Shown: one piece after another, positions 63,104-63,476 of the stretch
Layout: every line of letters starts with the position of its first letter
Numbering within the stretch: the stretch's first letter is position 1
Assembly (NCBI RefSeq): GCF_024223415.1
Contig: NZ_CP100500.1
Source: Escherichia coli
Lineage (GTDB): Bacteria; Pseudomonadota; Gammaproteobacteria; Enterobacterales; Enterobacteriaceae
Length of the DNA: 64,000 nt
Direction: 5' to 3' (one strand)
The notes under the pieces: generated by a model
What the model saw: the letters and a program-made list of their open reading frames with translations, nothing else
The model's database searches: none
What the model was told of the DNA's origin: nothing
Made by a program: the position numbers and the translations under genes

Positions 63104-63476
63104 ATGCGTCTGGAATTTGTTTTGCCTTACCCGCCGCCGGTGAACACTTACTGGCACCGTCGTGGTGGTAAGTATTTTGTATCAAAAGCGGGGGGAACGT
63201 TATCGTCGTGATGTCAGGCTTATTGTTCGCCAGCAGCAACTGAGATTAAGGCTGACCGGAAGACTGGGTATAAAAATCATCGCAGACCCGCCAGACAACC
63301 GCCGCCGTGACCTGGACAACATACTGAAAGTACCGCTGGATGCGCTGACCCATGCGGGGCTGCTTATTGATGACGAACAGTTTGATGAAATTTATATCGT
63401 GCGTGGCGTGTCAGTACCTGACGGGCGTCTGGGAGTGAAGATTTACGAAATTACAGGTGGTAACAATGGCGCGTGA
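63104..63476 (+). pseudogene. rusA: RusA-family Holliday junction resolvase, split by a frameshift at a G6 run
   Basis: N-terminal ORF MRLEFVLPYPPPVNTYWHRRGG... stops shortly after the G run at ~63190-63195; the downstream frame (track 63162..63476) carries ...DPPDNRRRDLDNILKVPLDALTHAGLLIDDEQ..., typical of RusA; removing one G restores a ~120-aa ORF. Confidence 0.7.

Follow-up and report, generated by a model that had tools for sequence, protein, structure and literature searches.

The closest described relatives of the gene considered here are the RusA proteins of Escherichia coli K-12, encoded in the DLP12 prophage (PDB: 1Q8R, 2H8C, 2H8E), and of phage 82, which are 120 amino acids long. 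In RusA, the residues D70, D72, K76, and D91 are catalytic, R69 serves in DNA binding, and N73 has a minor catalytic role; the K-12 gene is intact yet transcriptionally silent until insertion of an IS element upstream activates its expression (PMC10956419). A nearer relative at the DNA level is the intact allele encoding WP_089580981.1, which is present in E. coli strain GF60 and in many draft genomes and is flanked by a gene for a 286-amino acid protein upstream and by the gene for the late antiterminator Q downstream. Ordinary frameshift pseudogenes of prophages form a third point of comparison, in which slippage by one base, within a short homopolymer of a non-essential accessory gene, has become fixed in a lineage.

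The window (the whole stretch of 64,000 nucleotides that was analyzed) contains a rusA locus that resembles those of K-12 and phage 82 in being located in a lambdoid prophage and in its usual position directly 5' of Q. Unlike in the K-12 gene, an insertion of 1 bp disrupts its reading frame after residue 30 (Table 1). We consider it very probable that this is a genuine, heritable rusA pseudogene, the result of a slippage mutation of single origin in a lambdoid prophage lineage residing at mlrA, stably inherited and tolerated as a loss of optional cargo. The locus shares all of the properties of ordinary prophage frameshift pseudogenes listed above, with nothing distinctive here, and it is of an ordinary and already recognizable kind, a prophage accessory gene turned pseudogene by a frameshift.

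Table 1. Features of the prophage and of the split rusA; positions are counted from the first nucleotide of the window
Feature	Position	Strand	Remarks
Lambdoid prophage, left part	49771–64000		Integrated within the 5' end of mlrA (yehV); chromosomal collinearity stops at ~49770
Integrase	49805–51091	-	Followed by excisionase and early genes
LexA/CI-type repressor	57295–57987	-	
DEAD-box helicase	59500–61155		
Toprim primase	61157–62125		
286-aa gene	62125–62985		Followed by the rusA pseudogene, then Q
rusA pseudogene	63104–63476	+	373 nt, equal to the 372-nt intact gene plus one inserted G
N-terminal fragment ORF, 35 aa	63104–63211	+	RusA residues 1–30 plus out-of-frame GTLSS; premature TGA at 63209–63211
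G6 tract bearing the inserted G	63190–63195	+	Meeting point of both frames
Rest of rusA, Glu31 to Ala123 plus TGA	63195–63476	+	+1 frame; R68, D69, D71, N72, K75, D90
Antiterminator Q	63466–63891	+	Pfam Phage_antitermQ, 175 bits
Second G6 run, inside Q	63500–63505	+	310 nt downstream of the rusA run; internal control

The ORF that starts at the rusA ATG encodes MRLEFVLPYPPPVNTYWHRRGGKYFVSKAGGTLSS and ends at the premature TGA. A second ORF, one frame over at 63162–63476, reads ...ERYRRDVRLIV...PPDNRRRDLDNILK...LIDDEQ..., includes the motif NRRRDLDN, and ends at a TGA at 63474–63476. In the intact allele, the tract consists of five Gs within the codons GCG GGG GAA, which specify Ala29-Gly30-Glu31. 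Translated from the rusA start, the G6 allele yields the 30 native residues followed by GTLSS and stops short of the active site. In place of the single uninterrupted ORF of ~120 amino acids that characterizes RusA, there is a frame break at the G6 run and a premature stop codon; judged from these reading frames, the locus counts as a RusA-family pseudogene rather than as a functional member. The earlier note, which described a rusA split by one extra G with the DLDN motif in the downstream frame, was exact in its coordinates, frames, and tract length.

That note had also predicted that deleting one G would give a full-length resolvase, and the repaired frame indeed encodes a product of 123 amino acids (compared with 120 in K-12 and phage 82) that matches the Pfam RusA domain (PF05866) end to end. 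The match scores 54.8 bits over profile positions 1–123 of 124, against a cut-off of 22.8 bits, while the C-terminal frame alone scores 43.5 bits and covers only profile positions 21–123. The repaired product aligns with PDB 1Q8R without gaps (phmmer, E = 8e-19), and its alignment with K-12 RusA is ungapped over 112 residues, with 37% identity across the whole alignment. Residues R69, D70, D72, N73, K76, and D91 of RusA correspond here to R68, D69, D71, N72, K75, and D90; these six are invariant in an alignment with four homologues, and all are encoded 3' of the frameshift. With an above-threshold match over the whole domain and with the catalytic and DNA-binding residues in place, the repaired product belongs to the RusA family.

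A megablast comparison of positions 63000–63600 with 5426 complete E. coli genomes gave a single near-identical match, in strain GF60 (NZ_CP172185.1), which carries the G5 allele; the G6 allele occurs in none of the 5426. Across an alignment of 401 columns (window 63090–63490), the sole difference between GF60 and the window is the extra G. The GF60 annotation records an intact 123-amino acid RusA-family protein, with rusA at 6105–6476 of the locus and Q at 6466–6891. The WP_089580981.1 allele is 100% identical in DNA to the window over rusA and its flanks, bar this one G, and shares its neighbors, but the upstream replication genes are at least 23 SNPs away, placing it on a different prophage haplotype. 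The phage collection contained no close match to rusA.

From position 1 to ~49770, the window is E. coli chromosome, extending from setB to mlrA. The window stops being collinear with prophage-free genomes within mlrA, in the region of ~49730–49805, and the mlrA ORF left in the window encodes 215 amino acids, whereas the uninterrupted gene has 243 codons (732 nt). In O157:H7, Stx1 prophages integrate at this same gene, mlrA (yehV), with an effect on curli regulation. Within the prophage, rusA and Q overlap by 11 nt, the Q ATG falling within the last codons of rusA, so that they are normally read back to back. A scan of 62800–64000 for promoters and terminators gave nothing near rusA above shuffled expectation. 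The first 50–60 nt of the spacer between the 286-amino acid gene and rusA (window 63000–63059) match many otherwise unrelated prophages, including Stx2 phages, at 91.5–98% identity, after which similarity breaks off, a pattern suggestive of a mosaic recombination joint bordering the rusA module.

Two ORF products, of 104 amino acids (GTG start) and 99 amino acids (TTG start), contain QKRGERYRR, which can be encoded by the G6 allele only. In a collection of 15 billion proteins, these exact sequences occur on 26 and 14 contigs, and a variant differing in one residue occurs on one more, ~41 in total; the contigs named here are those among the matches listed, and the support they give to G6 comes from independent assemblies rather than read pile-ups. 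They belong to the NCBI assemblies GCA_900482235.1 and GCA_958336035.1, to Logan assemblies of at least 10 SRA runs (SRR31139864, SRR36098277, ERR12422842, SRR8095356, SRR13867147, ERR8971824, SRR29490181, SRR31868743, SRR29410906, and SRR28559351), and to the ENA metagenome assemblies ERZ27280530 and ERZ27280789. A further assembly, GCA_023124105.1, was found through the neighboring 286-amino acid gene and has G6 in its DNA, with no rusA product called. The G6 carriers may represent one clone sequenced many times, which narrows the meaning of "independent" yet still excludes an assembly error.

By index counts, G5 is present in 496 blocks and G6 in ~30. Scans of IMG/VR and of JGI metagenomes by pattern returned one locus each, both G5. 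The CI-type repressor occurs in 3196 index blocks, and looking it up returned only unrelated mosaic prophages. The 286-amino acid neighbor was considered as a haplotype marker and rejected, as the distinguishing SNPs are synonymous and the protein is common to G5 and G6 loci.

Among the loci fetched, the two tract lengths divide strictly by haplotype. G6 is present in 16 of 16 loci on the haplotype of the window, which differ from it by 0–2 SNPs over 3.8–4.4 kb, whereas the eight loci with G5 are each 23 or more SNPs away, these SNPs being located in the upstream helicase, primase, and 286-amino acid genes; G5 and G6 are never mixed on one haplotype among these 24. With 24 contigs examined per look-up, a rare reversion to G5 on the G6 haplotype may have escaped notice. 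This strict division indicates one mutational origin followed by stable inheritance, rather than switching. The G6 run inside Q has the same length in 24 of 24 loci, regardless of whether rusA carries G5 or G6.

These observations bear on the three options raised in the earlier note, namely decay, phase variation, and assembly error. If the true sequence were G5 and the gene intact, the extra G would be a sequencing or assembly error of the classic type, a change of 1 bp in homopolymer length, and the one near-identical complete genome, GF60, does have G5. We nevertheless regard this as extremely unlikely, given the ~41 contigs with G6, which derive from many runs, projects, and assemblers, and the perfect co-segregation of G6 with flanking SNPs; since G6 follows the haplotype, random homopolymer miscalls are excluded, and an assembly error is rejected. 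Moreover, the same data sources give G5 on other haplotypes, and the second G6 run, in Q, is never miscounted. The chromosomal part of the window is likewise free of such errors: compared with KV7 over 20.1 kb, it shows six substitutions and, within a GGT repeat, one in-frame deletion of 3 nt but not a single 1-bp indel, and compared with XYEH3934 between positions 19412 and 49766, it shows no indel of any size. These ~49.8 kb contain 176 homopolymer runs of at least 5 nt, 43 of them of at least 6 nt, and no single-base indel, so the suggestion that the rusA site serves as a quality flag finds no support, and the site gives no reason for doubting other homopolymer calls in the window. It is very unlikely that the tract forms a contingency locus in which RusA is switched on by G5 and off by G6 in a reversible manner. 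A coding mononucleotide tract with both an on and an off length in the population, as the index counts indicate, would be in keeping with such a switch, but among the 24 loci fetched the two lengths sit on separate haplotypes, with G6 confined to one tight haplotype and with no difference in tract length within that haplotype. No tract of G4, G7, or G8 was found in the metagenome pattern scan, which permitted these lengths and returned one locus, with G5, and the neighboring run in Q is invariant. Nor is the tract conserved: rusA homologues with 76–84% protein identity have AAA GCC GGT GAG for the same K-A-G-E, or GAG GAG GGA AAG, and lack the G run. The G5 run reflects the chance use of particular synonymous codons in this allele. 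At five to six Gs, the tract is not long enough for hypermutability; in E. coli with intact mismatch repair, a run of six Gs is short for switching at an appreciable rate.

Two further possibilities concern what the G6 allele might still do. Some full-length RusA could be produced by recoding, if the ribosome slipped by +1 on GGG-G (within GCG GGG GGA) or if RNA polymerase slipped on the tract. The P-site tRNA-Gly on GGG could in principle re-pair perfectly one base downstream, where the next codon, GAA, would continue into the wild-type protein. We judge this highly unlikely, as there is no conserved slippery site, stimulator, or two-frame layout, and the parental allele and four of four homologues are single ORFs; in addition, six Gs are too few for efficient transcriptional slippage. 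On the G6 background, moreover, one sample (P0013/L023) carries R66L, replacing a conserved Arg in the RRRD motif, and another (SRR29490181) has a deletion of 11 nt in Q, corresponding to window 63784–63794, that cuts Q to 114 amino acids. Although single cases each, these changes suggest relaxed constraint. The other possibility is that the frameshift has consequences for Q. In the intact allele, translation of rusA runs into the Q start through the 11-nt overlap, whereas ribosomes on the G6 allele stop 255 nt upstream of Q. A regulatory side-effect through reduced translation of Q or Rho-dependent polarity, or a trace of RusA made by +1 slippage on GGG-G, seems very improbable; if there were such an effect, the untranslated stretch before Q would damp late-gene expression and stabilize the prophage.

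The reading that we prefer, genuine and heritable decay of rusA, is borne out by the ~41 contigs and the single SNP haplotype. Under this model, replication slippage, most likely by slipped-strand mispairing, would have lengthened an incidental G5 run to G6, with loss of the frame after Gly30 and termination five codons on. The first 30 residues would then never be part of one chain with D69, D71, K75, and D90, and from this truncation no functional Holliday-junction resolvase is expected. The mutation would have arisen once and been passed on stably, and the loss was probably neutral for the prophage. Sister prophages support this tolerance. In strain Ch1 (L028, 13102), a prophage that is also located at mlrA has the same helicase-Toprim-285-amino acid module but no rusA, and the stop codon of its 285-amino acid gene abuts the Q start. 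In five other loci, the 285-amino acid gene is directly joined to Q or to another antiterminator, again with no rusA. Because sister prophages do without it, rusA is optional cargo in this phage group, and its loss is tolerated.

Accordingly, the proper annotation of this site is a rusA pseudogene, and the label "Holliday junction resolvase" is wrong for the 99- and 104-amino acid fragments, though it is used in one ENA record. The locus is a further case in which a resident lambdoid prophage has lost an accessory recombination gene, and the G6 allele could be used to mark the lineage of this prophage haplotype.

The modules around Q are highly mosaic, and some sister loci have genes of the Shiga toxin family (RIP, SLT_beta) downstream. 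In GCA_900482235.1 (locus L011, positions 5790–6300), a gene for an 85-amino acid protein and then a DUF968 gene are found downstream of the porin gene, where other G6 loci (L012 and L007) have a holin gene. As the genes past the porin differ, the G6 haplotype is linked to at least two late-region arrangements.

We also noted two features of the chromosomal part of the window. The in-frame 3-nt deletion mentioned above is in nupX, at ~11669, where it is seen relative to both KV7 and XYEH3934; it is the only indel relative to KV7 in 20 kb, and the match to NCTC10444 spans the same three extra bases. In cirA (plus strand, ~17881–19860), which encodes a receptor for catecholate siderophores and colicins, there is an in-frame TAG at 18988–18990 where KV7 has TGG. 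The near-identical strain NCTC10444 has another nonsense mutation in the adjacent codon of cirA, from CGA to TGA, which RefSeq flags as "internal stop." That close relatives carry two independent knock-outs in neighboring codons suggests that loss of CirA has been selected.
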